Shown in pieces: positions 8,606 to 63,999 of a stretch of 64,000 nucleotides of DNA. The stretch is from Schmidtea nova (Eukaryota): NCBI GenBank assembly GCA_044892505.1, contig CM097883.1, forward strand, positions 424,080,001-424,144,000. Reading direction: 5' to 3'. A program made the position numbers and the translations under genes. The notes beneath the pieces are model-generated. The model was not told the DNA's origin. It made no database searches and worked only from the letters and a program-made list of their open reading frames with translations. The first letter of the stretch is position 1. Each line of letters starts with the position of its first letter.

Positions 8606-8661
<56 letters not shown>

Positions 8662-15899: not shown

Positions 15900-15940
<41 letters not shown>

Positions 15941-18071: not shown

Positions 18072-18881
18072 TGTTGGGGTTTAGTAAAAATTAGAAAAAT
18101 ACAAAAATAAAAATCATAAAAATTTAGTAAAAATCAATAAAGTATAAAATTTTCAAAATTAATTAAAATTTAGGTAAAATTCGAAAACCGAGAATTAGCG
18201 GGGGAAATTGGTATGGGTGGATGCCGAATATTGAAACGAATCCAAAAATAATAAAACAAAGTCAATGGGGGGTCCCCAGAAAGAAATAATTAAAATATTA
18301 AAATATTAATTAATAATTAATTGGCTAAGGGAAAGCCCGAGCAAATGGGAAACCCGAGACAATGGAGAACCCGGAGAGTGTGGGAAACCCGGACAAGCAA
18401 TATGACAGGTAATAATTCCTGAGAAAAATAACTTTGGAATAGACCCGGAGAGTAACCGACAGATGGAAAATTAAAACGTCAAATCTTAAAGTACCATTTG
18501 ACAGTTGCAGCGAAGTGGGAAACCAATCACCAGAAACAGTATAAAAGGGAACGACAAATACTAAAGTTTGCCAGAATGGTCGAAGAAAAAGTGAGTGAAT
18601 TCAGCAAGTGAGGAGTTAAGAGCGATATTTGAAAAGTTCCAAACCAAATTTATTATTCCAGCGTACCAGAAAGGGAGATCTTCCTTGGGGAGACTTATCC
18701 CTACGCGAAGTCGGAGAAGCAGTGATAAAAGTTATTGTGAAATTTTAAAGAGACTTAGTGTGTCAAAAGTGTGATTGTTACAAATAAATTCTTCTGTGTT
18801 GGGTTATTTTATTGAATCAAATTTAAAGAACACCGAGGAGTCAGACTAACAGCACCGACTAAACATCGCAAATACCCAACA
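18072..18881 (+). repeat. 5' LTR of element 1
   Basis: Direct repeat of 34518-35327; I saw one substitution (AAATCTTAAA vs AAATCGTAAA). CCAAT at 18523, TATAAAA at 18540, AATAAA at 18783. Confidence 0.97.
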
Positions 18882-18884
18882 TTT

Positions 18885-18902
18885 TGGTGAGCCCGACGTG
18901 AT
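18885..18902 (+). promoter_or_regulatory. Primer-binding site, tRNA-Trp
   Basis: TGGTGAGCCCGACGTGAT lies 3 nt after the LTR. Its reverse complement ATCACGTCGGGCTCACCA matches the animal tRNA-Trp 3' end as I recall it (ATCACGTCGGGGTCACCA) at 17 of 18 positions. Confidence 0.85.
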
Positions 18903-19165
18903 CCAAAGTCGGTGAAAGGTTATTAAAAGGAAATACTCAAAATTCCGAAGCGAGCAAAGTAACAAAATGAAAGCAAATTGAATAATTATTGATTAAAACG
19001 TAAACGTTACTCGTTGAAATTGTAAAGGTAATCGAATAAAGTTGTGGAAAGCAGTTCAACAAAAAGTAAAATTTTATAATTGATACATTAAAATTCAGAA
19101 GAGATAAAGTTATACCAACCAGACCATTTTACGATTTGAGAAGCAACAGGAAACCAGAAGACGAA

Positions 19166-20261
19166 ATGAACAACCCAAACGGTCATGATGATACACCCAT
19201 GTCCACAAGCAATACCGGAAATGGCAATGACTATGCTAGCTGCCAAAAATTACCAGTTAACCAATATGGGGGCGATCCAGTGGAATTTGTCGACTTTATG
19301 GCAGATTACTATATGTATGCCACAGCCTATGGATGGAGCCAATCAATAATGGTGCAAAGACTACCGCTGTATTTAAAGGGAGCAGCAAGAGAAGCCTGGC
19401 AACAAATTGACAAAAGGACAATTGCCAATGACTGGACAAAACTGAAAGATGCCTTAGCCGCGAAGTTAGTCGGAGGAGACATCAAACGGATAATGAGGCA
19501 GAAATTCTATAATAGAGTACAAAAATCAGACAAATCCGTAAGTGAATTTACATACCATTTGACCACGCTTGCAGAAAAGGCCTTCGAAGTAAAACCGGAA
19601 CAGATTGAAGTGGCAAAGCAGGTAAAGGAACTATTACAAGATCAGTTCTTAGCGGGAGTAAAAGGGGAAATCAAAAAAGCCTTATGTTATGTAGATTTCA
19701 ATAACTTCGATGAGTTAATCAAAAAGGCTATGAAAATTGAATTAAATTTAAAAAGTGCAAAGCCGAAATCAGAATCCTTCGCCATTATCAATGAATCAAG
19801 AGAAAGATCCAATTCTCCAGTCAGAAACAATCGGCTCCAGCAATCAAGTAGTCCATCACCAAAATTTAGACCAAATTTTGAGATGAATAACACGTGTTCA
19901 AATTGACGAAAAAGAACAACCAATTCAATGCAGTTATTGTCAACGGATGGGACATCATGCCGATCAATGTTGGTTCAAGAACCGATCGCAAAAAAGCCCA
20001 ACTCCAATTCAATGTGATCACTGTCAAAAGATTGGTCACAATAACAATCAATGCTGGTCTAAAAATAATGTACAACGAAGCCCAAAACGAATGTGGCCAG
20101 ATTGAACTAATGATAATATACAATGCTACAATTGTGGAAGGAAAGGACATGTTTCACGTAATTGTTTTGCTAGTTCGAGATCTCCATCCACTTCGCCATC
20201 ACCACAACGAGATAGAGTGAACCTTCAAGGCCAAATTCAATGTCATTCATGTCGAGACTAT
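19166..20261 (+). pseudogene. gag: Gag (capsid domain plus four CCHC zinc knuckles), interrupted by a +1 frameshift and a TGA
   Basis: Capsid motifs WSQSIMVQRLPLYLKGAAREAW, QKSDKSVSEF and DQFLAG. In the frame of ORF 20217, upstream sequence reads CSYCQRMGHHADQC, CDHCQKIGHNNNQC, then TGA at 20103, then CYNCGRKGHVSRNC and CHSCRDYGHMARSC. The frame switches at about 19887-19903. Confidence 0.9.
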
Positions 20262-23200
20262 GGACATATGGCTAGATCATGCCCGAGAAATGTCGATAAA
20301 TTTCAGAAACCAATATTAAAAAAATCAATTCGTTTTCAAAATGATAGAATGCCAGCAGAAAATGTTGCTTTTGTTCAATTAGACGAATTTAATGATAGAA
20401 TTGAAAGTCAATTGAAAGAAATGGGTCGACGCTTGGATCGTTTAATGTCTAAGTTTGAATCTGATGAGGAATTAGATAATCACATGATGTATGGGTCGGA
20501 TATGACTGAAACGGAAGCGAAAGGAGTATGTACAAAGGACGATTTGGAAAGCGAAAAAGTTACAATAATGATGAAGAGACTTGAGAAATTGCTAGAAGCT
20601 AGCGCAAAAGAGTCATCCAAAATATTAATGTCAATTAAAAAGTTGAGTCAAATGTCACTGAGTATGAGAAAACTAAAATGCGTGATTAATTTGTGTGCAA
20701 ACTATTATCAAATAAATTTAGCAGATAGAGATGAAATCAAAGAGTTGATGAAAACATTTGGAAAAGCATTCCGAGAAAATGGATGGTTAGATTTTATTTT
20801 TATTGATGTTGTTAATGAATGTGATAAAAGTCTGATTACTTTTCGATGTGAAGCCTATGATTGTGTTAAAGATTTAAAAAGGAGACTAAGAGAAAAATGC
20901 GAAGGATGGGTAGTAGAATTAAAATTTAAAAATAGAGAATTAGATAACGAGGAATATTTGGTAGACTGTGGGTTTATACCAGGAGATAAAAATGAGTTAC
21001 AAATAGTCAATATGAGGAGTAGTTGTGAAATGGTGAAAAGTGATCCGAGGGAAGTGTTAAGGGAGCTATCTGATGTTTTATATATTGGCGATGAAAGCGA
21101 AATAAATGAAATAGTGAAATTAATTGAGAAATCTGAATTTGAGCAAAAGGATAAAATAGAAATTATCAACGTAATACGACCGCATCTGTTTAAAAGAACC
21201 AGATATAGTAGAAATTTAAAGAGATTACTGAGAAAATTGGGCAAAGAGCTTAGAGAAGATAGAGCAGAATTGAATTTATTAGTAATTGCAATAGAATACG
21301 AAGATATTAGAAAAACTGAGTATGTAGAAGAGCATTGGTGTACGAAAGTGCGGAAAATACGTAGAAGAGCTACGGAGATGTTAGGACAAGATGGAATTAT
21401 AGTATTGAAACATAAAGGTGAAGCACTGGATGACGATGAATATTTATACGACTGTGGATGCATGCCACAAGAATTAGATGAATATGGATATTTAAGTACT
21501 GACGGAAGTCAGGGATATTTAATTAACCATATAATAGCAAATAAAGAATTTAACCAGAGAATGCTTGGCAACGGGGAATCCTCCGACACAGAAGAAAAGA
21601 GAGATGAAATAGGAGAAAATGAAACCGCAATAGCTAACGATGAAGGTGATGATCAGAAAGAAGTCAATATTCAGGTAGCAGAAACTACAATTAGCAGAGA
21701 GACAAATGTCGAGAAAGTGGAAATGAATAATTGGAGTACTAAACCTAGAACTTTATATGAGATGAAGAAATATTTGGTAAATATAGAGCGGGAAGTTGAT
21801 GAAACTAAAGGAATAATAAGAAACCTAGTTAAAACTGTTTACCCAATTCTAAAAATAAAACCAGAAGCTGAGGAGGAATTGAAAGGGATGGTTGAGGAAG
21901 TGAAAGAGAGACTTCCAAAAATTGAGCATGAATTTGAAAAAAAGGGTGATTTCTGTAAAAGAGAAAGGATTGAAAAATTGATCGAAAATGGAATCGATAG
22001 AAAAACAGTGTTAACAAGTTTAACACATGTGGTTTCCGAAATTGGTATTCGTGCATTTACTAGGCCAGATCAGATTGAGAATTTGATTGACACTGCGGCT
22101 CGACTATTAAATGAATGTTTGATGAAAGGGATAAAAGAGCTTGGAGGGTGGAAAGCATTAAATTCATCTATAACAAAGAAAAGAAAGAAACAAGAAGATG
22201 AGAATCCACCTCAAAGAAAGTTGAACGAAAAAGTAGACCCTAAACTAAGAAAAACTACGATATTCCCTTGGGTGCTGTTCATGATGGTTATTTTATGCAC
22301 AATAATTGCACAAGCTACTTCATTGGTGGCATACGATTGCTCACAAACAGAAATGGGGAAAATTTATTCTGTGGTCGATATGACAGAATGCCCAGATGCA
22401 TACCCAAGAAAATTAAAAATTGAAAATGAAGCAAAATATCATGTTTACCAAGAATCCGATTTACGGCGTTCTCAAGTTAGGGAATGTATCGTTAAACGAA
22501 CCACGTTCGTATTCTTTTGTGGCAAATGGAGCCATACTTCGATGATAAAAATGCATGCTATTCCACGACCGGTGGACGTGTTACCAGAAAACTGTTTAAC
22601 GGCATTTCAAACAGGGGAATTAAAAATTAGTCCTGAAATTCGATTGAAAGCTCGAGTAAACCATCAAATCAGAGAAACATTAATTGTGAAAGGAGTAATG
22701 AAATCAGACGGCGATTGTGAGGGAGAACCGTATAAAATAAATGATCAAGTGATAAAACAAGCAGTAGTAATAGAGGAATATCTAACAGAATTGAGAGTAT
22801 TCGAAGGGTCGTTTGATGACGATACAGGAAAGTTACAAACTCATCCATTCTGTAATATGAAACAAACTAGTTGTCACACTGGGGAATTGATTCTTGTCTA
22901 TGATGTCAAGACTAATATATGCAATTTATCCCATTTAAAAACTATTAATTTCAAAGAATTGAGCGGAGAGCAATTTAGGGAAAGACCGGACAATTTTAAT
23001 GTGAATTATAAACCGAACAATACAGTTAGATCAACCCAAGTTTGGACGAGACAAACGGCAACAGTGTTAATGTCAACATTGCCAGCAGACAGCATGCGAT
23101 TCATAAAAAAGGACATAACGAGTAAATGTGGTCAAACTGTATATGCAACAAATTACAAAGGAGTTTATGTATCTAAAACAATCGTATATGAGGCTAAAAC

Positions 23201-45983: not shown

Positions 45984-46678
45984 TGTGAGACCGTGAGGCC
46001 CCACAACGACGACTCGGACTCCCTCGCCGCGTGAGCAGCATAGGAAGTATAACTATATGCATTAAAATATAAAAAAAGGAATATAAGATAACGTTTACAT
46101 ATAAGATTTTAATTAAACTAAAAATCATGGGTACATCATATAAGATAAAAAAATAAAAAAATTACTTCCGTACTTGAATATGTGGTTCCTTGTATGAAAT
46201 TCGGTTTTTCCAAAAAAAATTTACTCAAATCAAAGTTTAGTCTTGATCTTGAGTGAAAAGTAAAAGTCTCCGTCTGTGATTTTTGGATCGGTATTTATAC
46301 TGATCCGTCTGGTTGGATTGACCAATCAGGATCAGGCCGTCCATCAAAGTATTTTTATTATTTTAATCTAATCTAAACATTATTTTGTTTCCTTTTCCGG
46401 TTTCTCGCTGGGTGGTCCTGATTTTCCAAGTAATTAATTAATTATTTGTACTATTATTTTATTTAATTCTATTTTTTCTTATTTCAGGCCCCCTTTTGCG
46501 GTTGTTTACCGGTTTATTTTCAAAATTTCCTTTTACTGAAAATTTATCAATTATTATTTGTCGTTTTATTGTTATTTTTAATTTGTTTTTCTTGCTATTT
46601 TTATTTTTATTATTTCTTTATTGTTTCATGCTTTTGTTCGTTTTATTGTGTTTTTTAGGTGATTTGGCGGGCCCAACA
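45984..46678 (-). repeat. Candidate LTR (probably the 3' LTR of element 2)
   Basis: Starts TGTTGGG on the minus strand, as element 1 LTRs do, after a G-rich tract. A-rich U3-like stretch. CAATCCAACCAG...CAGTATAAA (TATA at 46300-46292) parallels CCAATCACCAG...CAGTATAAA in element 1. It ends ...CTCACA. The partner LTR is outside the window, so this is unverified. Confidence 0.45.
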
Positions 46679-47454: not shown

Positions 47455-47529
47455 CTCTTTTATACATTGGTCAATACAGCTTGACACTTTTTATTTTACA
47501 TAATTTATTTACACTTGGTTTTCGCACGT

Positions 47530-48591: not shown

Positions 48592-48709
48592 TTCTATAAT
48601 TACAGATAAAACGAATATTTAATCATTTTTATTTTTATTTTTATTGTTTTTGATTATTTGTTAATTCATATTGTTTCTATACATTTTATTTACATGGTTA
48701 CTTCCTTCA

Positions 48710-50086: not shown

Positions 50087-50179
50087 TTCCTACAATAATA
50101 TATACATTCGACTTGTCATTTATTTTTGGTTTTTTCTTGTTTTTATTTTTACATATTTACAATTTTCCGCTTTATTTAT

Positions 50180-50536
50180 CTATGGCTCATTCGTTGAATC
50201 TGGTTCCGCTTCGTTGTTTAATCTATTTATTACCCAACTCATCCATCCTTCTTCGGATCCTTCTCTTTCTCCTCGTGTTAAATGGTTTATTTCTATTGCT
50301 TGTCTTTGATTGATATTGCTTATATTTTGATTTTCTCTGGTGAGCTCGGTTATCACTCTTTGTTGTTCTTCTATTCTGTGTAATTTCTCGAAACAGTTGT
50401 TATAACTTTCTGATAATAACATTTGTCTTTCCGCTAATTGGTTCTGTAATGAGTTGACTGTTCGTACTAATAAATCACATTGTGCTTTCCATCTCATAGC
50501 CATAGTTATTTCAGTTGTTTCGTCCTGTTCGGTCAT
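50180..50536 (-). CDS. Short coiled-coil accessory protein
   Basis: 118-aa ORF with heptad pattern and the same composition as its neighbours. The ATG is preceded by ATTTAG|AAA. Confidence 0.55.
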   Translation of the reverse strand: MTEQDETTEITMAMRWKAQCDLLVRTVNSLQNQLAERQMLLSESYNNCFEKLHRIEEQQRVITELTRENQNISNINQRQAIEINHLTRGEREGSEEGWMSWVINRLNNEAEPDSTNEP

Positions 50537-50661
50537 TTTCTAAATTATATACATCATTTACTTTGTTTTTCTAGCTTTTTACAATTTTTATAATATCGAT
50601 ACCCATACTATTACGGTAATGCTTTGTTATTTACACTATTATTTACAGTCATAATCCGCCC

Positions 50662-53600
50662 CTATACCATCATTATCGTCTTTTCCTCGTATCGTTCTTC
50701 ATCTTCTATTTGTTTCCAGAATTCTTTACCTTTCGTTCTTCTTTGAAATTCTTTCTGTATCTCCTCTGGTATTTCTATTCCTAGTTTCATGATTTTGATA
50801 TCTGGCCATTGTATGGCTGTCGCTTTGTTTCTCTTTCTGTATCTCCAATATACTATTATGCTTGTCGTCAGTATTCCATATGCTATTAATATTCCTATAC
50901 TCATTAATCCTATTATTGTTTTTCCACTGTTTGTTTCTCTTTTATTCTGGTTCGCTTTTATCTCATTTTGGGTTTGAGCCTCTGGCTTCTTCTCTTTCTG
51001 TATTTGACTCTTAACTTTGTTCATTACTTCTTGTGTAGACCAATGGCGGTTTAGTAGTTGTTTGACGTTATTTTCTTTTGTTCGGTTTTCCATGTTTCCT
51101 GGTTCGATCTGTTGTTGTAGTTTCTCTGAGATCTGATATAATCCGCATTCTGGTTTTTCTGAACTTTTTCTGGTGAAGGTACATATCGCGTATGTCCTAT
51201 TTACTTTCATTTTCTTTAATTCGACTTTTTCTTTATTCTTTATTTCTTTACAGTGGGTTAGGTTGTCTTCTTCCCCTTCTGGGTTATGCTTTGTCCAACA
51301 TATTCCTTTAACTGTCTGATCGAGTCCTGTTAATGTCAGAGTTCTTTCTGTCTTTGTTAGTTCTTCTTCATCGAATTTCAGTATCTCTCCTTTTTGGAAT
51401 GTCTTGCAATGCTCTATTCCCTCTTGGATTCCTTTCTCCCAGATACATATACTTCCTTCTTCATTCATTTGTATTTCTTGTATTTCGATTTCCTTGTTTG
51501 TTCGTGATTCGTCGCTTGTCTGAACTTGGTATTCCTTCCTTGGTTCGTTGTATGTTCCCCAGCATAGTTTGTTGCTACTTGTTTTCCTTATTGTTATGGC
51601 CATTTGTTCTATTATTATTCCTTTATCGATACGTTTGGACATTGCTAGTATTAATGCTATGCATACGCACTCTTGTTGGGGTGATATTCTTTCTCTCGTT
51701 TTATTGGTGCTTTTCTCTCCTTCTCCTGGTTTATCCGTTGTGTTTCTTATCTGAGTTGCTGGTTGATCTATGGTGTTTTTGATTTCTTTCTTTGTTGGTT
51801 TTACTCTATACCATTCGAGTCCAGGCGTTTCATATTTTTGGCATACGACTGTCTTAGGTAGCCCCGCCTTCTTTTCCTTTCCTATTATGCATATTCGATG
51901 CATGATTCCTCTATACATCCCTTCTATTCGTACTACATCCTGGTCGGATTTTCTGATTATGCATTTTAGTGGGTTATCTTTCCCAATTGGTTCATCCTCT
52001 CTATTCCAGCATATTTTCCCGACTTCCTGGACATTTGTTACTTTTATCCCTGTCTGTGGGTTTATTGCTTCTTCCCTATTGATTAATGTCAATATTATTG
52101 TTAGACCCAACCATTTTGAACTCTGCGGTAGGCTTCTGGTTCGCCTTTCATATTTTTTCTCTTCGCCTTTAATCTCTTTTATTTCCTTGTCTTTGTTGTT
52201 TATTCCTAGTTTTCCGCTTTTCGCTTCTTTCTTATTTGGTTCTTCTCGTGCTTTTTCTTCTAGTATTTCTACTCCATGGCTTGTATTATCTATATTTAGC
52301 CATTGGGTTGTTGATTTTCTTGGGCTTATCTTGCGTAGCCATATAGCTGATAACGCGATTATTACTGGTATGGTTGCTGTTAATATTCCTAAGCCGATTA
52401 GTTCTTTAATTTCTTTATTCTCGTCTGTTTGTGTAGGTTCGCTTTGGTTGAACATTATTCCGTATTGTCCCTTTAGTTTTCTCATTAATTGTTCTCGTTC
52501 CTCTTGCTTTCTTTTGACTTCTTTGATAACTTCTTCGGGTGTCCATTTTGCTTGAGGGTCGGTTATTGTTTTTTCTGCGTCCATTTGTTCATTCGTTTGG
52601 CTTAGTTCCCTGAATTCGAGTTTCCTTGTTATTCCTTTTGATGTTGCGTTCGCTGGTGTATAGTAGGTTTCGCATCTTTCTTGTTGGTTTCCTAGTGCGT
52701 CCGTTTTTTCTATTGTACATACTTCGTACTCGCTATTAAATTGTAGTTTTTCGATCTTGATTTCTTTATTTGTTTTTCTGCACTCTCTTGATTGTCTTCT
52801 TATATATTTCTGGACTATTATCCAACATATCTCCAATGTTTTATTCTCTATTTTCCATAATGTCAGAGTTGCTGATGTCTTTTTCTCGGATTTTGTCGTA
52901 ACTTCTTGGCTTATCGGTTGTTTATTGTTTTTAAAGGTAGTGGTGTACTTCGGTTTCCCTTTGTTTCGTTGTCTTCTTTTATTTTTTCGTGTTAACGTTT
53001 TAGTTCTTGTTCCGGATGAAGTGGTGTATATTCCGCATTCTAGGTCGTTTATCGTTATCTGATCATTTTTCTTTACCAGACATATTTCGTAGGTTTGTTT
53101 ACTTTCTAGACCTTTTATTTGTATCGTTGTTGCTCCTGTGCTTGTTTGACATTGTGGTGTCGTTCTTTTATTTGTTTCCTTTTCGTACTTCCTCCAGCAT
53201 ACTCCTTTCACATTTGGTTCTATCTCTTTTATTTCTAATGTTATGTTCATTTTCCGCTTGATTTGTTTATTTCTCTTCCTCGTTCTCCTTCTGAACTTTA
53301 TTACTTCTCCGGGTTGAAATGTTTTACATTTTGTGGTACCTTTCTTGTTTGTCTCTTTTTCTAATAGGCATAGTTTGTACATCTTATCTGCTTTTACTTC
53401 GGATACTTTAATTACTTTGTTTGTTGTTGGTTTTCGACTTTTCCTTATTTCATTTACGCCGATTTCCTCGTTATTCCTCGCCCAACATTTTATGTTAGTA
53501 TTCTGTGTATCTTCTACTTCTGTTATTGTCATAGTTTCAATTTCTATTCCTTCCTCTAATCGTTTTATTATTATTAGTATGAGTGCTAAGCATAATACTT

Positions 53601-56600
53601 CCATTTGGTAAGACACTCTTTCAGTTTCGTTTGTGGCAACTCTTGCTTCGGGCCTCTTTATTGTAATTCGTATAGTTGGTGTTGTTTGCTTATCTATTAC
53701 CTGGGGATTTTTGTTTTCTGTTCCCTGTGTCTCTGTTCTTCCACATTTTCCGAGGATGTAATCTCCTTTGGGTGACTGTTGTATTGTCATGGCTGCTTTA
53801 GGTGTTTGGTATTTTGCACATGCGATTGTGTTGTGTGATCTTGGATGCTTTTGTTTTCTAACGGTGCATATTTTGTACCAGGTATCTAGATCTAAGTCAT
53901 TGATCTCTATGATCTCTTGCTCGTGTTTTGAGATTCTGCAATCCATCGGGCTATTTTGTTCCGTGGTTTTGTCCTTTTTCGACCAACATACTCGTTCGAT
54001 TCCTTTTGCGTTTTTTATTTGTATTATTGCCCTTTCTTCACATGTCATTCCCTGACTTGGATTAATTAACGTTATAATCATTGTTAGTAATAGTAATTCT
54101 GGTTTGAAGAATGGTTTTATGGTTGATTTATAACCTGTTCTTTGGGTGTCTCCTTGGTCGTTTGTTCCTTGTTCTCTCTCTTCATCTCTTTGTTTTTCAT
54201 CTTCACCTTTCTTTCCTTCCTTGTCTCGTTTCTTGTCTTTTCTCTCGTTTTCCTCTTTATCGGGTGGTTCGTGATCGCTTGAATTTTCTGAGTTGTTACC
54301 GTCGTCACTATCTGTGTTGTCATCTCCCCCTGGCTCGTCGAAAATGTTGTCCTCGACATTGATTTCTTCTATTAGTTTCGCATACGCTAATGTCGTTAGA
54401 TTACTTGCCTCAAATTCTTGTGTTTCTACCTGCTCCGGTATTACTTTGTTAGTGGATTTATGTTCCAAGATTTCCTTTTTGGCCTTGATCCAATTGTTGA
54501 TGTATGTCTTCATCAATTCTTTCCATTTGCCTGTGTATTTTTCCTCTTTCGGGCTGGTTGTGATTTTTAGATCTTTTCTTTCCATAAACATCTTCAATAT
54601 CTCTGGCCATTTATACGTTATTAAGGCACTTCTTATGCACCAGTTTTGGTTATGTTCGGTAAACTTATTGATCCTGAATGCTGGTTCGTTAGTATTAGGA
54701 TTTATCCACGTAAGTATTGATTCTGTTAGTTCGACGTTGTTCATCATTGCTAGTACACTGGGTTTCTTGACCGTATCAGTTAGGTGATCTATTTCTTCCT
54801 GATTTGGGACGGTTTTAATGAAATTGACCATTTCCCAATTGTGTGTTAATAATGCTACATCCAATATCGAATTATCTTTATCTGTCTTTCCTGTAAGTCC
54901 TGCACCTGCTTTGTATAGTTCTTCTAATACCTTTGTTTTCGTTTTGGCCCTTGCTGCAAATACCATAAGTGTATCTCCTTTCTCGTCTATCATATTCATA
55001 TTGCTTCCGCAATTTAGCATTACTCTTGCAATTTCCATTACTTTCCTATCTTTGCCATTTCGTAGAGCTCTATGTATGGGCATTATTCCGTCTTTTGGTA
55101 ATAGGAATGTTACTGGCATCTCCTTTTTTATTATTACTATGTCGTTACCATTGTATGTTCCTTTTGCGTATGCGTGTACTTTTTCAACTAATGCGCCGAG
55201 TATTTCCAGTGCATGTTTACTATTCTCGAATTCCGGTAACAATTCTTTTGCTTTTTCTTGTATCGCATCTAGTCTAGCTTGGTATGGTGCTTCTGCTTTG
55301 AAGAGTGGTGTGAGTTTCTTGTTACTTTCTCTTTCTTTTTTCTCTAAAACCTGTTTGCATTTTTCGGGATGGTTTAAGATTTTTACTAATTCCTCATATT
55401 CGCTTACTATCGTCTGGTATTTCTCGTTAAAATTGTTTATATCTTTGTATGTTATTAGTTTATCAAGTGGTTTCGCACACCATTTCCTAATCTTATTGAA
55501 TAAGGCTTCCTTCTCTTTATCGAATTTGTATTCTTCTTCATTCTTTGTGATGTTTATGTTTCCTCTGTCTAATAAGGTTAGTAATGTCTTCTGATCACAA
55601 GTAAATTTCAAAAGGTATCTTAACAGTGCGTTTTGTCCTTCGCTGTATACTTCGTTTATGTCTAAGACCCATGTATCATCTTCTGGTCGTTTCCATTTGA
55701 TTAACTTACGGATCGTGTTGCATTTACCAATTTTGATTGCCTCTTCGATAATGTCTCCTTTAACTAGTTCGTCTATCTCCCAAGTGGAGTTAGCTATTAT
55801 GTATTTCAGCATTGGTTGGTGAGAACTCCATATTACGTGATTTAGCACTGTTTTGTCCTCTCTATCTCGTTCTGTCCAACTGAAATGAGCTTTTATCAAT
55901 AGGTCTATCATTTCTTTATCTGCTTGGTGGATTGCGGCTGTCATTAATGGAGTTTCTTGTTCCCGATTCCCTACGTCCAAGTTTTGGTTTGTTTCTTTTG
56001 CGATTTTTAGGAATTCTTTTGCTCTTTCAATGTTTTTACACTCTATCGCATTATGTAAGGCTGGTTGTCCTCCTACATCTTTCAATAAGAGTATTTCAGG
56101 GATTTTTTCCAATAATTCAGAAATAATTGGTTCGGTTGGTAATCCTTGTGCGTAACGGCTAATTATATGTCTAATATCCCTTGATATGCCTGCTTCGTCT
56201 CTAACATGCCATCTTCCCATTATCTCTCTCGCCTTCAATATGATTTCTTTATTTCTGATTTCCTTTTGCCTTATTTCTGCTTTGTCGTCTTTAGTTGCGT
56301 TAGTTCTGAGCATATTTATCCTGGCTGTTTGTGATCTAGTTATTATTCGATTTTCTGGTGTTGTAGTTATCGTTTTAGGCACCTTCTTACATCTGCAGGT
56401 GTTTACGTATATGGGTCGTATTAACGGTCGATTTATTAGCTTAACTTTGACATTGTTGTCCTTTTTGTATATAATTTCATAAGGTCCTCTTCCAGGTCTT
56501 TGGAGTTTCTTAACAGTTCCGGGTATTATTTCGGGAGTTTCTATTATCACCCAATCTCCTGGTTTTAGATCGTTCGCTTTAACATTTTTCTTCTGGTCGT

Positions 56601-59600
56601 GTAAGTCCTTATAACTTTCCTGATAAAATTTAATGTTGAGTTCTGCCGTTTTCCATATTTCCTGCATTCTTTCTTTGAATTTGGTTACGTAGTCGTCATC
56701 TTCCATATATTGCGATAATGGTGGCTGATACTCTAAATCTATGGGCATGTTGCATTCTCTTCCATACATAAGTTGAAATGGGCTTAGTTTTGTTGCTGCA
56801 TGTATCGACATTCGGTATGCCATTAAACATAATTTTATGTATTCATCCCAGTCAGTTTGGTGTCTGCTGACGTAGTTTGATAACATTCTAATCAATGTGC
56901 CGTTGAATCGCTCCGTTTGTCCATTCGTTTGCGGGTGATATGGTGAAGTTCTCAATTTTGCTATTCTGAAGTAGTTTGTCACCTCGTTCAATAATTCACT
57001 CATAAAATTAGTTCCTTGGTCTGTGAGTATTTGTTTTGGAGTTCCGTATCTGCAACATATTTCTTCCACTAGAATTTTTGCTACGGTTTTTGCTTTTTGG
57101 TCTTGCATGGCAAATGCTTCCGGGAATTTCGTCAGATAATCCGTTATTACCAATATATAAATATTTCCGTTTAAACTTTCTGGTAATGGCCCTATTACGT
57201 CCATTGCTATAGTTGTCATTGGCTCTGCTGGTATTGGCATTGGTTGTAGTGGGTTTTTCCATTTCTTCCCACTATCCTTTCTGGTTGCGCAGGTTAGACA
57301 ATTTTTAATCCATTCCTTTATATCTTCTTCCATTGTTCGCCAATAATATTTTTGTCTCATACGATTTATGGTCTTTTTCTCGGACATATGACCTCCCAAT
57401 TTCCCATCATGGTATTGGATCATTATCTCTTTCCTTCTGTTTTCCGGTAAACACATCAATCTCTTTTCCCCGTCGTGTATTAATAACCATCCTTTATTTA
57501 TTATGTAGCGATGTTGATATTTTCCTATATGTTCCTTTAATTCCTTATTATCCTTAAATACCTCCATATTTCGAGACGTTAGGAACTCTATGATCTGTCC
57601 CAATTCTTTGTCTTCCTGTTGATCTTTCTTTAACTCACTAAAATCTAGATCCTCCGCTATTAATACACAAATTCGTTGTACATCAGGATCGGTTAGTTCT
57701 GGAAATGTCAGTCTTGACATACAATCTGCATTCGCATTCGCTCTTCCTGATTTAAATTTTATGTCCGGTGAGTACTCCTGTAACTGCATTGCCCATCGCA
57801 TTAATCTACTGGATGTTTCCTTGTGCTGTCCTAACCATACAAGCGGTTGGTGATCTGTTGTTATGCAGATGATGTGTCCCCATAATAAATATTTAAAATG
57901 TTTTATTGCTAGTATAATCGCTAATGCTTCCCGTTCTGTTACTGAGTAATTTTTCTCATGCTTTTTGAATGTCCGGCTATAATATCCGATTACGCGTTCC
58001 TTTCCTTCGTCGTCGTATTGTCCTAATACGGCTCCTGCTGCATATCCGCTTGCATCTGCTGCAAGTAGGAATGGTTTCTTGAAGTCTGGGTGTACCAATA
58101 TAGGTGCGGTTATCAGTTTATCTCTTAATGTCTCGAAAGCTGTCTGCTGTTCGTCTCCCCATATGAATGATACATCTTTCTTGACTAGTTCCTGTATAGG
58201 TTTTGCTATTCCGGCGTAATCTTTTATAAACTTTCTGTAGTATCCACACAACCCAAGAAACTCTTGTATCTGGGTTATTGTTTTTGGTACTGGACATTCT
58301 TTTACCTTGTCGATATTTCTAGGATCCGGTTCTTTTCCTTTTGCTGACACTATATGTCCTAAAAATGTTACTTTCTCTTTCGCCCAGTCACACTTGGATG
58401 GCTTGAGTTTTAACTTCCATTGTCTAAGTCTAACGAATACATCTCGAATATCCTGTATGTGTTGTTCAAACGTGCTAGAATAAATCAATAAATCGTCTAT
58501 GTAGACCATACACTGCTTTATCCCATGGGTGACGAAATTCATGCATCTCTGAAATGATGCTGGTGCGTTTGTTAGTCCAAATGGCATCTTTCGAAATTGA
58601 TATAGGTCTCTACCGATGGTAAAGGCAGTTTTCTCCTTATCTTCTTCCTTCATTTTTATTTGCCAATATCCGCTTTTCAGATCTAACGACGTAAAATATG
58701 CTGCTCCTTGTAATGTTAATAGCATTTCATTAATGTCTGGTAATGGGTAAGTATCCCTTTTTGTCACTGTATTCAATCTTCGATAATCTATACAGAATCT
58801 CTGTGTTCCATCTTTCTTCTTTACCATTACCACTGGAAATTGCCAGGGTGAACAACTTGGTTCGATTACTTCTGCATCCAACATTTTCTTCACTTCTGCT
58901 TCTGCTACTGCTTTCTGTGCTTCCGCTAATTTGTACGGCCTTAATGCAATTGGTGTTTCATCTGTTAATGGTATTGTATGTAGTGTGACATCACATGTTC
59001 CTAGATCTAAATCGGATGCTGCAAATATATCCTTATACTCTATCAAAAGTTTTTCTAACTGCTTCTTTTGATCCTCGTTTAATAATTCACTATCAATATT
59101 CCAGGTTGGTTCTTTATCTTTCTCTGCCCCTTCTATTGGCAGTTCAATATCCATCATTGGGGTTAGTTTGCCTAATCTTTCGTTTTCGTAGATTATTTTG
59201 TCCTCTTCATCGAAGTTTACTATGTTTATTGGGATTTCTCCATTGTCATTTATGTTGACTAGTCCTCTTGCCATTGGCAACGCTTTTCTTTTCTCGAATC
59301 TTTTACTTGGTTCGAAAATCATATCGCCTTGGATTGTCGGATCTATTTTTACGTAACATATTTTCTCCTTTCTTGCGGGTATTATCATTTGCTTTGAACT
59401 TGTCACTTTGGCTTCTATTGCGCATATTTGTCCTGTGCGATCTTTTAGTCTCATTGTTCCGAGATCGATTACAATCTCTTTAAATAAGGCTGGCATCAAA
59501 TCTGTTCCGATAATGCAAGGCACGCTTAATGCTGGTATGACTGCTACGTACGTATCGATTTCCGTATTTAAGTGGCGTATTTTTACCCACCATCTTCCTG

Positions 59601-62600
59601 CTACTTCTACAACTTCTTTGCTACATGCAATTACATGGACGTTTGTCCTTTCTATATCTCGTCTTTGCTCTTGTGGTATCCATTTGATGTCGATGGCGGA
59701 AATGTTTGCTCCAGTGTCGATCATTGCTTCGATTTCTCTTCCATTAATTTCTATTGTCGTGGTTAGTACTGGACCTGTGTTTGATGACATTACTGCGATC
59801 GTGTGTGTATCTCCTTGTGGATCTACGCTTCTACATCTTCTCATTTTATAATCTTCTGGTATCATGGGGTATACATTTGTCATTGGCATCATTTGCATCG
59901 TGCTATTTTTTCCTCCTTGTAGTGGTTCTTGATACATGGTTGGTGGAGGTGCGTAACATTTCCATGCGTCGGCTGGATTCTTTTCGATGTATTGTGGTGC
60001 TTGGTTCTTATACACTTGTTCTCCCTTATAGTCGTCATCGTCATCGTCGTCGTCACTTGAATCATTTTGGGTTTTATATCCTTTCATCCTCTCCCATAAA
60101 CCTTTTCTTTCTCCCTTGAGCTGTTGTCTTGCTTGTTCGTCATTCATTATCTTTTTAAATTTTCGTCCTACTTCTTCATCTGTTCCCTTCATTTTTGCGA
60201 GTATCTTCAACAATCTCTTTATTCGATGTATGTCCTTTGAGTGTCCGTGCAACACCATCGTTTTCGCAAGGAATGGTAAAAATCCTACTACCATTTTCCA
60301 ATTCACTTTCTTTTCTCTCTTGTAGATGTCAAAACACGCGAGCATTTGCGTTATTATCACTCTGACGATTTGGATTATTAATATTACCCCTAGTATTCCA
60401 GCCATCATTTGTCCGAATATCAAGAATCTTCCCCACATTGCTTTCATCATATTTTCGGTGGCTTTCTTGAAATGTGCTGGTGACAACAACAGTTCATAAT
60501 TCGGTCCTTCTCGATAATTCGTTCCTCCCGTTATCGTTACGATATTTGACAGTAATGCTTCTCTTCTCGCTGGAAATAATATATTCTGCCTTGCTGCTTC
60601 TAAATCCTTTGGACTATATATTCCGTTGTTTGAGACATCTACGTCGCTGAATTGCCTATCCTTTGACAACTGCATTAGCTCGAATTCTCTTGGTGCTATC
60701 ACTTCGGATCTTCCTGGGAACATAACCCATTTACCATCTGGTTTCTGATAAAGCGGTCCATACGCATTACTACAGTTGAATGGATTTGGTTCGAATCCTG
60801 GTGGATTGATGATTCTCGTCACTGGTTGAACGTATCGTACTTTTCCTTTGTAATCGATTTCTAACTCATTTGTACAGGTTCCAGGTTTCAACTGTGTTGT
60901 TGCTGCTAGTGACGCGTGTGTCTTTTCGCAAATGTATACATACATTGCTTCTCCAACCACTCTTCCGAAATGTCCTTCTCTTAGTGGTAATAATGGCATC
61001 GCGCTATCTGGATTCGTAATCGCTATGGCCAACTTTGTCTTTAATATTTCTCGATTCAGTATACAATCATTGTTTATTAGATCGTAGTACACTTTTTGTA
61101 ATGAGGCTTGTCCTCTATGGAATAGGAAATCCATTTTATTATTCACATACAGGTGTAGTTTGATATCTATTGTGTCGATTTTGTGTTTCGCATTCGGCAC
61201 TTCTTGTTTTGACACATATATTCCTGGGTAATTTGTTTCGTATACCGTTGTACTACACTTAAGGGTTGCTTTCCCTTTTATGAACCTCATTCCCACATCC
61301 TGATTTGTGGTTATCAACACTGTTGGTGTGGCTCTCATCTCTATCCGTTTTTCTCTATGATCCGTTTTCAGTTGTCTTTTATTCTCTAAAGCTTCCTTGA
61401 GATGCTTTGCTCTAGCTTTGTCGTCATCGTCTTCTTCCTGAAACGTTTTTCCTTGAATTTCGTCGAATTTTGCTCCTTGTAGCAGTTGTAGTTGACATTC
61501 ATTTACCTTTGGTTTGTATATTAATGTTGACATTCCCGTTTGACACATGCTCCTATCGATTTGACACATGGATAACGTTTTCATTTCTCCTGTTGTTGGT
61601 TCGAAGAATGCTTCATAGCTTTTTAATTCGACTATATACGTATCCATCACCACTAAGTTAGTTGCGGGTACTCCGAATATCGGGTAGGTTTCTCCTTGAC
61701 AATATCCTTCTCCTCCCGTAATCCGTCCTGCTACATAGTATGTCTGTTGCATCATCATTCCTGGCTTTCCTCTTATCTTGATTTTATCTCTTGTTGTTAC
61801 TTCTCCATGTTTAAACAGTGCTTCGCAGTCTTCTCCTTGTAACACGATTGGTTCTCTTTCCGTTCCTGGCATGACAATTGCTGAATAGTGTCCTCTCCCG
61901 CAGTAGAATGCGAATCTCGTCTTCTGCACCTTACATTCATTCACCATTGTCTTTATAAGTTCTGCTTCTTGATACACGTGGTACCATTGTTCCTTTTTAA
62001 TCTTTTGCAACTCTACTGGAGTCGCATCTTTGCATTGCTCCGTACCTCTCAATGAATACTTTTCTCCTAACTTCATTTGGTCGCAATCAAACACTTCGAA
62101 TGCTGTTGCGCTATCGGTGCTAATCATCCATATCAACATCATCATTATTATAGAACTCAAATTCATTGATGACTTCGCGTTTCCCGTTCCTGCTTGTTCT
62201 TTTGCTAACTCTTCCAATATTTTTTCGAATTTCTTTTTCATATTCTTCGCTTGCGTTTTCTTCTGGTTAGTTTTTATAAATGTTTCCCATCCTCCTTTGT
62301 TAATGACGTATGGTTCTATTTCTCTCGCTATAATTTTTGCGGTATTTTTTATATGTCTCTCTAATGCAGTGGGTTTTGGTCGACCTCTACTCAATGTCAA
62401 CAGATTGTATATCGTGTATGCAATGGCTATTACGTATTTGTTATCCGTTTCCGCTCCTTCTGTCAGCTTCTTTATTAACATAGTGGTTCCTTGCCAGTCT
62501 AAATGGTTTGACTTCGTCTTTTCTTTTATGAATTCCGGTAAGATGGGTGCGATTGCGCTGTGTAGTGACTTCGCCTTTTCGCTTATCTCAGTTATACGCC

Positions 62601-63999
62601 AGCATTTTCTTAATTCCGGATCAATTATTGCCAATATTTCCATTATTGTTTTCGATATCCATTCCTCCCCCTGACATATTGGTGTTGTCTCTTTTTCTTT
62701 CATCTCCGCAATTTTATTTAGTTTCCTTAGGCATAATTCCCATTGATCTTGTCTCTTTTCATCTTTATTTCTTATAACTACAGTTGCTGGGTCTGTCTTA
62801 GGTCTACCTCTAGGTCGTTTATCCATTCCTGTACCTGTTTCCACAAACCTTGTTGCCCGTCCTGTTTCTTCCGTGACATCTCTTGGTTCGTTAGCTCTTT
62901 CTTCTAACCATCTTTCCATTTCCTGGGTTAATTGTACATTTTCGGCATACGCTCCTCTGGTTTCATCTTCTGTTAAATCGTTGACTTCTTCTACTATTAT
63001 TTCCTGTTCGACTTCTGTTTCTCCGGTGTTGGTTACTTGTATTGCCGTAGGTAATTCTTGTATTCTTTCGAAAATATTGTCGTCTTTTTCCTTTGTTAAT
63101 TCGGTTAATTCTTCTATCATATCGTCGCTGTCTGTAAATATTTCGTCCACGTCATATGGTTGTGGTGGAGTCCTTTCTCTATTTCCTCTGGGTGTTGTCT
63201 CAGATCGTCTCGAACTTGTCCCTGGTGTTAGTGCTGATTTCATCGGGCTCGGCGTACTTATACTTCCGTGTGGTTTATGGTTTTCTTCTTTACGTTTCAA
63301 TGGTTGACCCGCTATTGCTTCTACTGTCAAGGTATTCATGAGGTCTAATTGTGCTGGTGTTATTCCGATTTCCAAACTGTTATCTAATGATCGTCCTTGG
63401 TGTTGTAAATGGAATGGTGGTTCGTATCTCAATTTCTTTTTAATATCTCGAATTTTTTCTGCTATTCCTACCCACAACTCTTCCTTATCCTTGTTTGGGT
63501 ATATTATTCTTAAATGTACTTTTTGTGGAATTTCCTGCGAGAATTCTTGATTTCTCCATTTCCTAATTACGTGGTCTAGTTGTTCCGGACACCACTCGTT
63601 AACTCTTTTATATTCCGCGATTGCTTTTGCTACTTTACGCAAGCATGTTATATCCTCCCCATTTACCACGAAAAAATCTGCGAGACCCTTTATTACTTTT
63701 CTCTTACCGTGCGCATTAGTTTTTAATATCTCGACAAATTCTTCCGTTTTTTGCTTTTCCCTTTCTAACCACATAGCCGCTGTTTCTGGTCCATCTAGGT
63801 CTATTGGCGTAGCTTTCCTTGTCACCATGCAAACCCTTCCTATCTCTGGTTCGCAGTCATCTTCAATTCCTCTTTTATATTCTTCTTCATATTCCCCTTC
63901 TTTTGGTTCCCAACATTTTCCTTTCTCGTTCCATTGTTTTTCTACGGGTGTTCGTATTCGTCTGTTGAGATTGAGTTCTTCTAATACATTTTCCCACTC
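50662..63999 (-). CDS. pol: Giant polyprotein (>4400 aa, 5' partial): UBL, Bcl-2-like, signal plus chuvirus-like glycoprotein, PR, RT, RNase H, INT, ankyrins, two FN3-like membrane proteins
   Basis: Hand translation shows the frame stays open from 63828 to the window edge, so the true start and gag lie outside. Signal plus FEVFDC at about 62160-62083, TM at about 60430-60250, MIDTG at about 59715, YIDD at about 58500, the RNase H motifs DAS...EREA...TDH, HHCC plus D..D..E integrase at about 57420-56750, ankyrin motifs at 56085-54815, and TMs at 52402-52336 and 50917-50845. Confidence 0.95.
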   Translation of the reverse strand, partial: EWENVLEELNLNRRIRTPVEKQWNEKGKCWEPKEGEYEEEYKRGIEDDCEPEIGRVCMVTRKATPIDLDGPETAAMWLEREKQKTEEFVEILKTNAHGKRKVIKGLADFFVVNGEDITCLRKVAKAIAEYKRVNEWCPEQLDHVIRKWRNQEFSQEIPQKVHLRIIYPNKDKEELWVGIAEKIRDIKKKLRYEPPFHLQHQGRSLDNSLEIGITPAQLDLMNTLTVEAIAGQPLKRKEENHKPHGSISTPSPMKSALTPGTSSRRSETTPRGNRERTPPQPYDVDEIFTDSDDMIEELTELTKEKDDNIFERIQELPTAIQVTNTGETEVEQEIIVEEVNDLTEDETRGAYAENVQLTQEMERWLEERANEPRDVTEETGRATRFVETGTGMDKRPRGRPKTDPATVVIRNKDEKRQDQWELCLRKLNKIAEMKEKETTPICQGEEWISKTIMEILAIIDPELRKCWRITEISEKAKSLHSAIAPILPEFIKEKTKSNHLDWQGTTMLIKKLTEGAETDNKYVIAIAYTIYNLLTLSRGRPKPTALERHIKNTAKIIAREIEPYVINKGGWETFIKTNQKKTQAKNMKKKFEKILEELAKEQAGTGNAKSSMNLSSIIMMMLIWMISTDSATAFEVFDCDQMKLGEKYSLRGTEQCKDATPVELQKIKKEQWYHVYQEAELIKTMVNECKVQKTRFAFYCGRGHYSAIVMPGTEREPIVLQGEDCEALFKHGEVTTRDKIKIRGKPGMMMQQTYYVAGRITGGEGYCQGETYPIFGVPATNLVVMDTYIVELKSYEAFFEPTTGEMKTLSMCQIDRSMCQTGMSTLIYKPKVNECQLQLLQGAKFDEIQGKTFQEEDDDDKARAKHLKEALENKRQLKTDHREKRIEMRATPTVLITTNQDVGMRFIKGKATLKCSTTVYETNYPGIYVSKQEVPNAKHKIDTIDIKLHLYVNNKMDFLFHRGQASLQKVYYDLINNDCILNREILKTKLAIAITNPDSAMPLLPLREGHFGRVVGEAMYVYICEKTHASLAATTQLKPGTCTNELEIDYKGKVRYVQPVTRIINPPGFEPNPFNCSNAYGPLYQKPDGKWVMFPGRSEVIAPREFELMQLSKDRQFSDVDVSNNGIYSPKDLEAARQNILFPARREALLSNIVTITGGTNYREGPNYELLLSPAHFKKATENMMKAMWGRFLIFGQMMAGILGVILIIQIVRVIITQMLACFDIYKREKKVNWKMVVGFLPFLAKTMVLHGHSKDIHRIKRLLKILAKMKGTDEEVGRKFKKIMNDEQARQQLKGERKGLWERMKGYKTQNDSSDDDDDDDDYKGEQVYKNQAPQYIEKNPADAWKCYAPPPTMYQEPLQGGKNSTMQMMPMTNVYPMIPEDYKMRRCRSVDPQGDTHTIAVMSSNTGPVLTTTIEINGREIEAMIDTGANISAIDIKWIPQEQRRDIERTNVHVIACSKEVVEVAGRWWVKIRHLNTEIDTYVAVIPALSVPCIIGTDLMPALFKEIVIDLGTMRLKDRTGQICAIEAKVTSSKQMIIPARKEKICYVKIDPTIQGDMIFEPSKRFEKRKALPMARGLVNINDNGEIPINIVNFDEEDKIIYENERLGKLTPMMDIELPIEGAEKDKEPTWNIDSELLNEDQKKQLEKLLIEYKDIFAASDLDLGTCDVTLHTIPLTDETPIALRPYKLAEAQKAVAEAEVKKMLDAEVIEPSCSPWQFPVVMVKKKDGTQRFCIDYRRLNTVTKRDTYPLPDINEMLLTLQGAAYFTSLDLKSGYWQIKMKEEDKEKTAFTIGRDLYQFRKMPFGLTNAPASFQRCMNFVTHGIKQCMVYIDDLLIYSSTFEQHIQDIRDVFVRLRQWKLKLKPSKCDWAKEKVTFLGHIVSAKGKEPDPRNIDKVKECPVPKTITQIQEFLGLCGYYRKFIKDYAGIAKPIQELVKKDVSFIWGDEQQTAFETLRDKLITAPILVHPDFKKPFLLAADASGYAAGAVLGQYDDEGKERVIGYYSRTFKKHEKNYSVTEREALAIILAIKHFKYLLWGHIICITTDHQPLVWLGQHKETSSRLMRWAMQLQEYSPDIKFKSGRANANADCMSRLTFPELTDPDVQRICVLIAEDLDFSELKKDQQEDKELGQIIEFLTSRNMEVFKDNKELKEHIGKYQHRYIINKGWLLIHDGEKRLMCLPENRRKEIMIQYHDGKLGGHMSEKKTINRMRQKYYWRTMEEDIKEWIKNCLTCATRKDSGKKWKNPLQPMPIPAEPMTTIAMDVIGPLPESLNGNIYILVITDYLTKFPEAFAMQDQKAKTVAKILVEEICCRYGTPKQILTDQGTNFMSELLNEVTNYFRIAKLRTSPYHPQTNGQTERFNGTLIRMLSNYVSRHQTDWDEYIKLCLMAYRMSIHAATKLSPFQLMYGRECNMPIDLEYQPPLSQYMEDDDYVTKFKERMQEIWKTAELNIKFYQESYKDLHDQKKNVKANDLKPGDWVIIETPEIIPGTVKKLQRPGRGPYEIIYKKDNNVKVKLINRPLIRPIYVNTCRCKKVPKTITTTPENRIITRSQTARINMLRTNATKDDKAEIRQKEIRNKEIILKAREIMGRWHVRDEAGISRDIRHIISRYAQGLPTEPIISELLEKIPEILLLKDVGGQPALHNAIECKNIERAKEFLKIAKETNQNLDVGNREQETPLMTAAIHQADKEMIDLLIKAHFSWTERDREDKTVLNHVIWSSHQPMLKYIIANSTWEIDELVKGDIIEEAIKIGKCNTIRKLIKWKRPEDDTWVLDINEVYSEGQNALLRYLLKFTCDQKTLLTLLDRGNINITKNEEEYKFDKEKEALFNKIRKWCAKPLDKLITYKDINNFNEKYQTIVSEYEELVKILNHPEKCKQVLEKKERESNKKLTPLFKAEAPYQARLDAIQEKAKELLPEFENSKHALEILGALVEKVHAYAKGTYNGNDIVIIKKEMPVTFLLPKDGIMPIHRALRNGKDRKVMEIARVMLNCGSNMNMIDEKGDTLMVFAARAKTKTKVLEELYKAGAGLTGKTDKDNSILDVALLTHNWEMVNFIKTVPNQEEIDHLTDTVKKPSVLAMMNNVELTESILTWINPNTNEPAFRINKFTEHNQNWCIRSALITYKWPEILKMFMERKDLKITTSPKEEKYTGKWKELMKTYINNWIKAKKEILEHKSTNKVIPEQVETQEFEASNLTTLAYAKLIEEINVEDNIFDEPGGDDNTDSDDGNNSENSSDHEPPDKEENERKDKKRDKEGKKGEDEKQRDEEREQGTNDQGDTQRTGYKSTIKPFFKPELLLLTMIITLINPSQGMTCEERAIIQIKNAKGIERVCWSKKDKTTEQNSPMDCRISKHEQEIIEINDLDLDTWYKICTVRKQKHPRSHNTIACAKYQTPKAAMTIQQSPKGDYILGKCGRTETQGTENKNPQVIDKQTTPTIRITIKRPEARVATNETERVSYQMEVLCLALILIIIKRLEEGIEIETMTITEVEDTQNTNIKCWARNNEEIGVNEIRKSRKPTTNKVIKVSEVKADKMYKLCLLEKETNKKGTTKCKTFQPGEVIKFRRRTRKRNKQIKRKMNITLEIKEIEPNVKGVCWRKYEKETNKRTTPQCQTSTGATTIQIKGLESKQTYEICLVKKNDQITINDLECGIYTTSSGTRTKTLTRKNKRRQRNKGKPKYTTTFKNNKQPISQEVTTKSEKKTSATLTLWKIENKTLEICWIIVQKYIRRQSRECRKTNKEIKIEKLQFNSEYEVCTIEKTDALGNQQERCETYYTPANATSKGITRKLEFRELSQTNEQMDAEKTITDPQAKWTPEEVIKEVKRKQEEREQLMRKLKGQYGIMFNQSEPTQTDENKEIKELIGLGILTATIPVIIALSAIWLRKISPRKSTTQWLNIDNTSHGVEILEEKAREEPNKKEAKSGKLGINNKDKEIKEIKGEEKKYERRTRSLPQSSKWLGLTIILTLINREEAINPQTGIKVTNVQEVGKICWNREDEPIGKDNPLKCIIRKSDQDVVRIEGMYRGIMHRICIIGKEKKAGLPKTVVCQKYETPGLEWYRVKPTKKEIKNTIDQPATQIRNTTDKPGEGEKSTNKTRERISPQQECVCIALILAMSKRIDKGIIIEQMAITIRKTSSNKLCWGTYNEPRKEYQVQTSDESRTNKEIEIQEIQMNEEGSICIWEKGIQEGIEHCKTFQKGEILKFDEEELTKTERTLTLTGLDQTVKGICWTKHNPEGEEDNLTHCKEIKNKEKVELKKMKVNRTYAICTFTRKSSEKPECGLYQISEKLQQQIEPGNMENRTKENNVKQLLNRHWSTQEVMNKVKSQIQKEKKPEAQTQNEIKANQNKRETNSGKTIIGLMSIGILIAYGILTTSIIVYWRYRKRNKATAIQWPDIKIMKLGIEIPEEIQKEFQRRTKGKEFWKQIEDEERYEEKTIMMV

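Follow-up and report, generated by a model that had tools for sequence, protein, structure and literature searches.

A Bcl-2-like domain directly before the in-frame Env in two Burro-like Ty3/gypsy retroelements of Schmidtea nova

In a window of 64,000 nucleotides from Schmidtea nova (the whole stretch of DNA analysed here; assembly GCA_044892505.1, contig CM097883.1, positions 424,080,001 to 424,144,000 of the forward strand), we found two retroelements whose polyproteins each contain a Bcl-2-like domain. The reading that we favor, and hold to be about evenly balanced between right and wrong, is that these are Burro-type elements with a Bcl-2-fold domain, likely captured once from the host, which acts as a membrane-tethered mimic of pro-survival proteins and keeps the element-producing cell alive.

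Background

The Burro elements of planarians have been described as encoding Gag, CCHC, MATH_TRAF_C, Ubi2/SUMO-like, and BCL2 domains, an in-frame mononegavirus-like Env, PR-RT-RH-IN, BIR, and ankyrins, with the BCL2-like motif located between the ubiquitin-like domain and Env [PMC6431247]. In that review, the BCL2-like motif is attributed to Grohme et al. 2018, and its link to apoptosis is considered to merit testing. As this motif was already published, the presence of a Bcl-2 module is not new, and the statement in the initial annotation that no LTR retrotransposon with such a module was known does not hold; both the cargo and the kind of element are already known. A Burro1 IAP (BIR-RING) module reportedly shields the stem cells of planarians from apoptosis and aids regeneration (Lee et al. 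2026, Dev Cell, as given in PMC13465017), and BURRO1 is transcribed upon PIWI loss (PMC8532177). In the literature searched, with most subscription journals outside the search, we found no functional or structural study of the Burro BCL2 motif, and the accessible parts of PMC11410931 and PMC13238120 contain nothing on BCL2.

The present study adds support for the fold, one probable origin across many families, weak purifying selection (omega 0.31), the absence of the NWGR glycine from all but one of 32 aligned rows, and the Env signal peptide as a would-be tail anchor.

Architecture of the two elements

Element 1 is a Ty3/gypsy LTR retroelement of 17.3 kb on the plus strand (18072-35327). Its LTRs (5', 18072..18881; 3', 34518..35327) are 810 bp long, begin with TG and end with CA, and are identical at 809 of 810 positions; the target duplication is the 4-bp AAGC. 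The coding part is split into three plus-strand frames (19070-19906, 20106-25709, and 25710-29219). The first contains the capsid part of Gag (19070..19906; Retrotrans_gag, E 1.2e-8) and is broken before the zinc knuckles, and the second ends at a premature stop (25707-25709) inside RT, within the segment for PR, RT, RNase H, and integrase (24540..29219, +). Between Gag and PR, the plus strand encodes two putative ubiquitin-like repeats (20790..21485), the Bcl-2-like domain (21780..22181), the internal signal peptide of Env (22260..22322), and Env (22323..24221; PF24664, E 4.8e-84). The frame of this family is about 3400 aa long, and the copy in the window is broken. The Pfam scan of element 1 gave no ankyrin or MATH/TRAF match. 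Downstream, an ORF at 29544-31091 (+) has a weak match to the RNase T/DEDDh exonuclease family (E 2e-4, under the Pfam cut-off), and the 3' non-coding region (33785-34272) contains two near-perfect palindromes with arms of about 100 nt beside ATT repeats.

Element 2 is a Ty3/gypsy LTR retroelement of about 29.9 kb that lies on the minus strand and runs past the end of the window. Its frame at 50662-63999 (-) gives 4445 aa in the window, is open at the window's end, and reaches 5657 aa in the genome. The 3' LTR (43537..46678, -; 3.14 kb) and the 5' LTR, which lies outside the window, share 99.8% identity. Both elements are young insertions. The order of domains is the same in the two: gag, Bcl-2-like domain, signal peptide, mononegavirus-type Env, PR, RT, RH, and IN.

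In element 2, Pfam places Gag and CCHC knuckles ahead of the Bcl-2-like domain. They are followed on the minus strand by the motif RPRGRPK (62797..62817), which we take to be AT-hook-like, an extra helix a0 (62695..62742) that precedes the Bcl-2 fold and does not align to solved Bcl-2 structures, and the Bcl-2-fold domain itself (62254..62685; model residues 21-164, with helices from a1 at 62623-62670 to a7/8 at 62263-62289). Then come the hydrophobic internal signal peptide of Env (62101..62163), which has small residues at -3/-1 and is predicted to be retained as a membrane anchor of the Bcl-2 domain, and Env (60265..62100, the lower bound being approximate), a Monjiviricetes-type fusion glycoprotein (PF24664, E 1.5e-70). 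PR, RT, RNase H, and integrase (56932..59760, -) and ankyrin repeats (55789..56058, -; Ank_2, E 1.3e-11) complete the series. Such an AT-hook-like RGRP motif occurs 150-170 residues before BH2 in three of nine families checked (element 2, L107, and L054) and in the proteins P0008 and P0011.

Between ORF1 and the 3' LTR of element 2, a single full-length frame (48710-50089, -) encodes a TRAF-like protein with a RING-like start (read by eye), TRAF zinc fingers (zf-TRAF), a coiled coil, and MATH (E 8.6e-21). Between the 5' LTR and gag, an accessory ORF (L043:7471-7932, -) encodes an IAP-type RING (zf-C3HC4_3, E 2.8e-11); no BIR was matched by Pfam in its frame, and neither BIR nor dUTPase was matched in the frames scanned (those longer than about 120-150 aa).

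Several further features of element 2 were noted. Past the integrase and ankyrins, the polyprotein (50662-55700, -) contains more signal-like or transmembrane stretches around repeated cysteine-bearing modules that have no Pfam match; in element 1 and the copy L082, the tail is shorter but built alike. An ORF of 202 aa lies within the LTR and is thus present twice (44006-44614, -, and L043:8729-9337), and L044:4836-5447 is a similar ORF outside the element. Other accessory ORFs on the minus strand (47740-48618, 46885-47490, and 50180-50539) are coiled-coil and membrane-like, and the first two of these gave no clear Pfam family.

Both elements fit Burro-type Ty3/gypsy retroelements in their architecture as compared with the published descriptions of Burro. 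Burro/GYPSM1 from dugesiid planarians (Jurka 2007; Grohme et al. 2018; Arkhipova and Yushenova 2019, PMC6431247) and element 2 have in common a giant ORF1, Gag, CCHC, a BCL2-like motif, an in-frame Env, PR-RT-RH-IN, ankyrins, MATH/TRAF, and a length of about 30 kb with LTRs. The mononegavirus-like Env (PF24664) before PR and the Bcl-2-like domain directly before Env are Burro features that occur in both elements. The differences are that ORF1 is longer in element 2 (5657 aa, against 4873 and 5140 aa in Burro), that the review has only a MATH_TRAF_C domain whereas the MATH of element 2 lies in a downstream, full TRAF-like ORF, and that Burro has BIR and dUTPase, neither of which was matched in the proteins of element 1 or 2 that were scanned, while an IAP-type RING ORF lies upstream of gag in element 2. 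Element 1 differs from Burro as a 17-kb relative without ankyrin matches. As for the Ubi2/SUMO-like domain (PF11976) upstream of Bcl-2, one of five candidate segments matched it (E 0.0018), the profile matched a redesigned ubiquitin (E 0.38), and P0008 matched ubiquitin (E 0.005). Env also lies between gag and pol in the Ty3/gypsy GAG-ENV-POL errantiviruses of Platyhelminthes, Nematoda, and Bryozoa (PMC13524379), and the main text of that paper mentions neither 'bcl' nor 'burro'.

Detection of the domain by sequence

The initial annotation proposed a Bcl-2-like domain in both polyproteins, and this was borne out by a profile that left out the clades concerned, by shuffled sequences, and by the fold model of element 2. 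Its placing just ahead of the glycoprotein signal peptide was likewise correct: both domains lie 36-42 aa before the hydrophobic stretch and the Env start. The landmark peptides of element 1 are KLIEN at 21975 and GGWKA at 22143 in the plus-strand frame 20106-25709 (span 21975-22157); those of element 2 are KLTEG at 62469-62455 and GGWET at 62295-62281 (-; span 62469-62281).

Single sequences gave little. Neither domain of the window had a Bcl-2 match in single-sequence Pfam and PDB searches, and the two domains alone gave no significant alignment to each other (BLASTP E 1.1). The metagenome locus scan with the domain of element 2 found no relative. A search with a single domain against longer proteins found no homolog, and a search with a profile found only two proteins, both already in the alignment.

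Profiles did detect the domain. The window contains 965 open stretches of 30 aa or more, in which GGW occurs twice. A profile of 15 rows built without either clade of the window found 21780-22181 (iE 1.3e-15) and 62257-62661 (iE 4.8e-12) among these stretches, the next-best match being at iE 0.79. When the sequences were shuffled with GGW held fixed, none of 1000 reached the real score, for each domain and with each of two profiles. Homology to PF00452 over BH1-BH2 was reached via sister families, which exceed the Pfam cut-off, and via profiles, not via the domains of the window alone; nine of the 11 rows of the first alignment match PF00452 at E up to 1. A profile from 20 element rows matched Bcl-xL across BH1-BH2 (E 3e-9), a match that is not independent because the element rows were chosen partly by their Bcl-2 likeness: for those from the same genome, a Bcl-2 search and the Env start motif were among the means of selection. 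The profile without the clades of the window is the cleaner test of homology.

Predicted fold

AlphaFold was applied to the domain of element 2 with an alignment of 32 element rows that contained no known cellular Bcl-2 protein, and gave a model with pLDDT 86 and pTM 0.78. Element 1 is tied to this prediction by profile homology. The model suggests an eight-helix Bcl-2 bundle (a1-a8) around a central hydrophobic a5-a6 hairpin. From the single sequence, AlphaFold gave pLDDT 50, and Foldseek on that model found no meaningful match.

A structural search, a kind of check suggested in the initial annotation, placed Bcl-2 folds on top: in a comparison with 48,161 chains (VIA), each of the 35 highest rows is a Bcl-2 fold, with Z reaching 13.8 (137 residues, rmsd 2.8), and Z is down to 5.9 at the first chain from outside the family. 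The comparison tool carries a warning that helical bundles may commonly give Z below about 13; the assignment of the predicted fold rests on the unbroken run of one family and on the cover of the full domain rather than on Z by itself. The PDB rows listed by Foldseek were all of the Bcl-2 family (best E 0.008, TM about 0.62), and the BFVD rows were mostly viral Bcl-2 homologs; no match in PDB or BFVD reached E 0.001.

Cellular, herpesvirus, and African swine fever virus (ASFV) homologs scored Z of about 11-14 against the model. The element domain resembles cellular pro-survival proteins (Bcl-xL, Bfl-1/A1, Mcl-1, Trichoplax trBcl-2L2, and schistosome sjA) in the predicted a1-a8 fold, the GGW of BH2, the scaffold of BH1, and a hydrophobic stretch after a8. 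It differs from them in its low identity (8-18%), the lost NWGR glycine, a degenerate BH3 of its own, and the extra helix a0; moreover, it is made within a polyprotein, and its putative anchor is the Env signal peptide. Viral homologs (KSHV KsBcl-2, EBV BHRF1, ASFV A179L, poxviral M11L/F1L/N1L, and A46/A52/B14) also represent a captured and diverged Bcl-2 fold on a mobile element, but they are stand-alone genes of large DNA viruses, whereas the element domain is an in-frame module of a retroelement polyprotein. Among them, similarity was lowest to the poxviral signaling inhibitors A52, B14, and A46 (Z 8.0, 6.7, and 6.5). Thus, of the proposal that these are divergent modules like the viral Bcl-2 proteins, the Bcl-2 fold stood, while the analogy to viral NF-kB inhibitors became weaker, since the model is nearer to the cellular and herpesvirus/ASFV types.

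Motifs and selection

The initial annotation also stated that NWGR is missing. The literal motif is indeed gone, element 2 having TDNK and element 1 DRKT in its place, but BH1 is not simply lost. The glycine was retained in one of the 32 rows, and Arg or Lys occupied the fourth place in 18 of them, element 2 included; none of the 14 rows of element 1's clade has a basic residue there. The glycine and the arginine have been described as important for interactions within the family, although some viral homologs bind with an incomplete set of contacts (PMC9027176). The BH2 motif (W/Y-I-x-x-x-GGW) is present as PYVINKGGW in element 2; in the window copy of element 1, G replaces the W of BH2, which close sister families keep. 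The BH3 position of element 2 reads ISEKAKSL (register set by hand) and lacks the Gly-Asp pair, which argues against a Bax/Bak-like killer. By hand count, 40 residues separate its BH3 from BH1, the same spacing as in P0020, a Bcl-xL-like protein. A deletion of helix a3 had been considered and was dropped, the BH3-to-BH1 spacing being about 37-40 residues.

Selection was studied in 13 copies of element 1's clade, two of which were dropped for stops. In the remaining 11 stop-free copies (123 codons), omega of the domain was 0.31 (2dL 120 against omega 1). The lowest value within the domain was that of a5 (0.19), a1 was fairly constrained (0.29), and the groove-side a2-a3 was least constrained (0.51). 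Outside the domain, omega was 0.20 in the signal, 0.08 at the Env start, and 0.41-0.44 in the linkers. Selection on the domain is purifying but weak.

No other folded part of the polyprotein changes as fast as the domain. When element 1 was set against a sister family, identity was 61% in the domain and 82-98% in the Gag side, the ubiquitin-like part, Env, PR, and RT, and the pairwise omega of the domain (0.41) matched that of the preceding linker (0.40). Between element 1 and the family with a frame of 5000 aa, identity is 33% in the domain, 54% in Env, and 91% in RT. In two pairs of families, 124 of 124 and 141 of 141 domain residues align. The fold is preserved, and the surface is not.

Other families and origin

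The genome search gave at least 150 matches for each domain of the window, most of them without an internal stop (1091 and 1624 first-look candidates). Among the matches listed, all copies of element 2's domain were 93-100% identical, and those of element 1's domain 60-100%. A search with PF00452 gave at least 150 matches; the 30 loci read comprised 14 host-gene-like loci and 16 element copies. These 16 belong to two other families, in which the PF00452 match is immediately followed by the same signal peptide and the start of Env. One full sister copy, read by eye, has Gag, CCHC, ubiquitin-like, Bcl-2, Env, PR, RT, RH, and IN in a frame of 3073 aa, and the full frames of further families are about 2990, 3070, 3230, 3345, 3390, 3400, 5000, and 5660 aa.

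A profile search of 1.84 billion representatives found 20 proteins, 10 ordinary Bcl-2 proteins and 10 that we treated as element-type, including three short ones (P0009, P0017, and P0025) counted as such without visible Env or Gag context. The Env start was present in six of the element-type proteins and a Gag-type sequence in one. In a tree of 41 rows, which has only 78 columns and no sure root, one branch separated 22 element rows from 19 cellular rows (support 96/94). One origin of the domain across many families is probable from these sequences, and the domain was likely captured once from a host gene.

Of 11 host sequences, the paralog L050 scored best against the element profile (32 bits) and has a tyrosine in a5 in common with it. 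L050 was dropped as the donor gene, and no donor is named, because several outside Bcl-2 proteins outscored it and the tree does not join it to the elements. An expanded group of diverged host paralogs (L050, L052, L056, L064, L070, and L073) also lacks the NWGR glycine (WSR, WSK, or WSH). For the Bax/Bak-like host loci L049 and L051, a BH3 exon was not found within about 20 kb.

Membrane anchor and possible functions

In all 18 elements compared, a hydrophobic stretch begins 20-56 aa past GGW; this count is not free of selection, because the elements were picked for the Env start motif. The stretch closes with small residues at -3/-1, immediately ahead of the start of Env; the -1 residue is small in 17 of the 18. 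In six cellular Bcl-2 proteins, the tail anchor starts 14-35 aa after GGW. We propose the following arrangement. Signal peptidase would cut after the hydrophobic stretch and leave it on the piece composed of Gag, the ubiquitin-like part, and Bcl-2, so that the retained Env signal may serve as a C-terminal anchor in the ER membrane, like the tail anchor of cellular Bcl-2 proteins. The Bcl-2 domain would then lie on the cytosolic side, whether or not the protease of the element frees it from Gag, and could bind host pro-death proteins through a rewired groove. The groove is taken as rewired because the glycine of BH1 is lost and the BH3 of the domain lacks the Gly-Asp pair. A pro-survival role is favored because the fold is kept in every family found, the basic residue of BH1 is often kept, and IAP-type RING and TRAF-like ORFs accompany the domain. 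Against it count the retention of the NWGR glycine in a single row, the non-basic Arg slot throughout element 1's clade, the rank of the domain as fastest-changing folded part, the weak constraint on a2-a3, and the lack of a Foldseek match at E 0.001 or better.

Alternatively, the domain may now be structural, a matrix-like spacer that holds Gag at the membrane beside Env via the shared signal stretch and has lost its death-regulating role. The domain is always at the joint between Gag and Env, its groove residues and a2-a3 drift, unlike the conserved core helices, and its divergence is near that of the linkers. However, a mere spacer would have no need to preserve all of the a1-a8 fold across families that are 15-35% identical, with every domain residue aligned in the two pairs above, nor a basic residue in the Arg slot in more than half of the rows, and the element carries other cell-death modules. 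We consider this explanation rather unlikely.

The loss of the BH1 glycine, together with rapid change of the surface, as would suit an arms race with the host, could also point to a groove-independent blocker of innate-immune or TRAF/NF-kB signaling, like poxviral A46, A52, B14, and K7, and the TRAF-like ORF and ankyrins of element 2 would suit such a role. The model is much closer to the BH3-binding homologs (Z about 11-14), although this may mirror ancestry and not function, and the spacing from BH3 to BH1 in element 2 equals that of P0020; such a blocker is, in our judgment, unlikely.

Cellular Bcl-2 and herpesvirus M11 act at the ER on autophagy or calcium release. The Env signal anchor would put the element domain in the ER rather than in mitochondria, helix a1 is fairly constrained (the omega of 0.29 given above), and the M11-Beclin 1 structure was among the structural matches to the model of element 2. 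Nevertheless, we regard an action at the ER outside the mitochondrial BH3 network as distinctly improbable. Finally, although single sequences matched nothing and the single-sequence model was poor (pLDDT 50), a chance GGW in an ordinary helical linker is refuted by the profile without the clades of the window, the shuffles with fixed GGW, the Pfam-positive sister families, and the alignment-based model.

A bolder version of the pro-survival reading, which we think doubtful, would trace the whole Burro radiation to a single captured Bcl-2 gene of a host and derive the Env signal peptide from its tail anchor. An active death blocker, anchored in the ER, would then remain after the production of each Env; together with the captured IAP and TRAF modules, it would amount to a multi-level kit against apoptosis and immune signaling like that of large DNA viruses, carried by hundreds to thousands of young copies that reshape planarian stem-cell survival. 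If the Bcl-2 module is active in many families, each of which has at least 150 close copies, it would be a second retroelement route for tuning host cell death. The fold model, the map of conserved sites, and the geometry of the anchor make a functional test concrete.

A neighboring element

The window also contains an element of about 7.7 kb (8555-16281) with long terminal inverted repeats (98% identical over 557 nt) and a broken frame for a protein-primed DNA polymerase B (PF03175, E 8e-10), which is presumably a Polinton/Maverick derivative.
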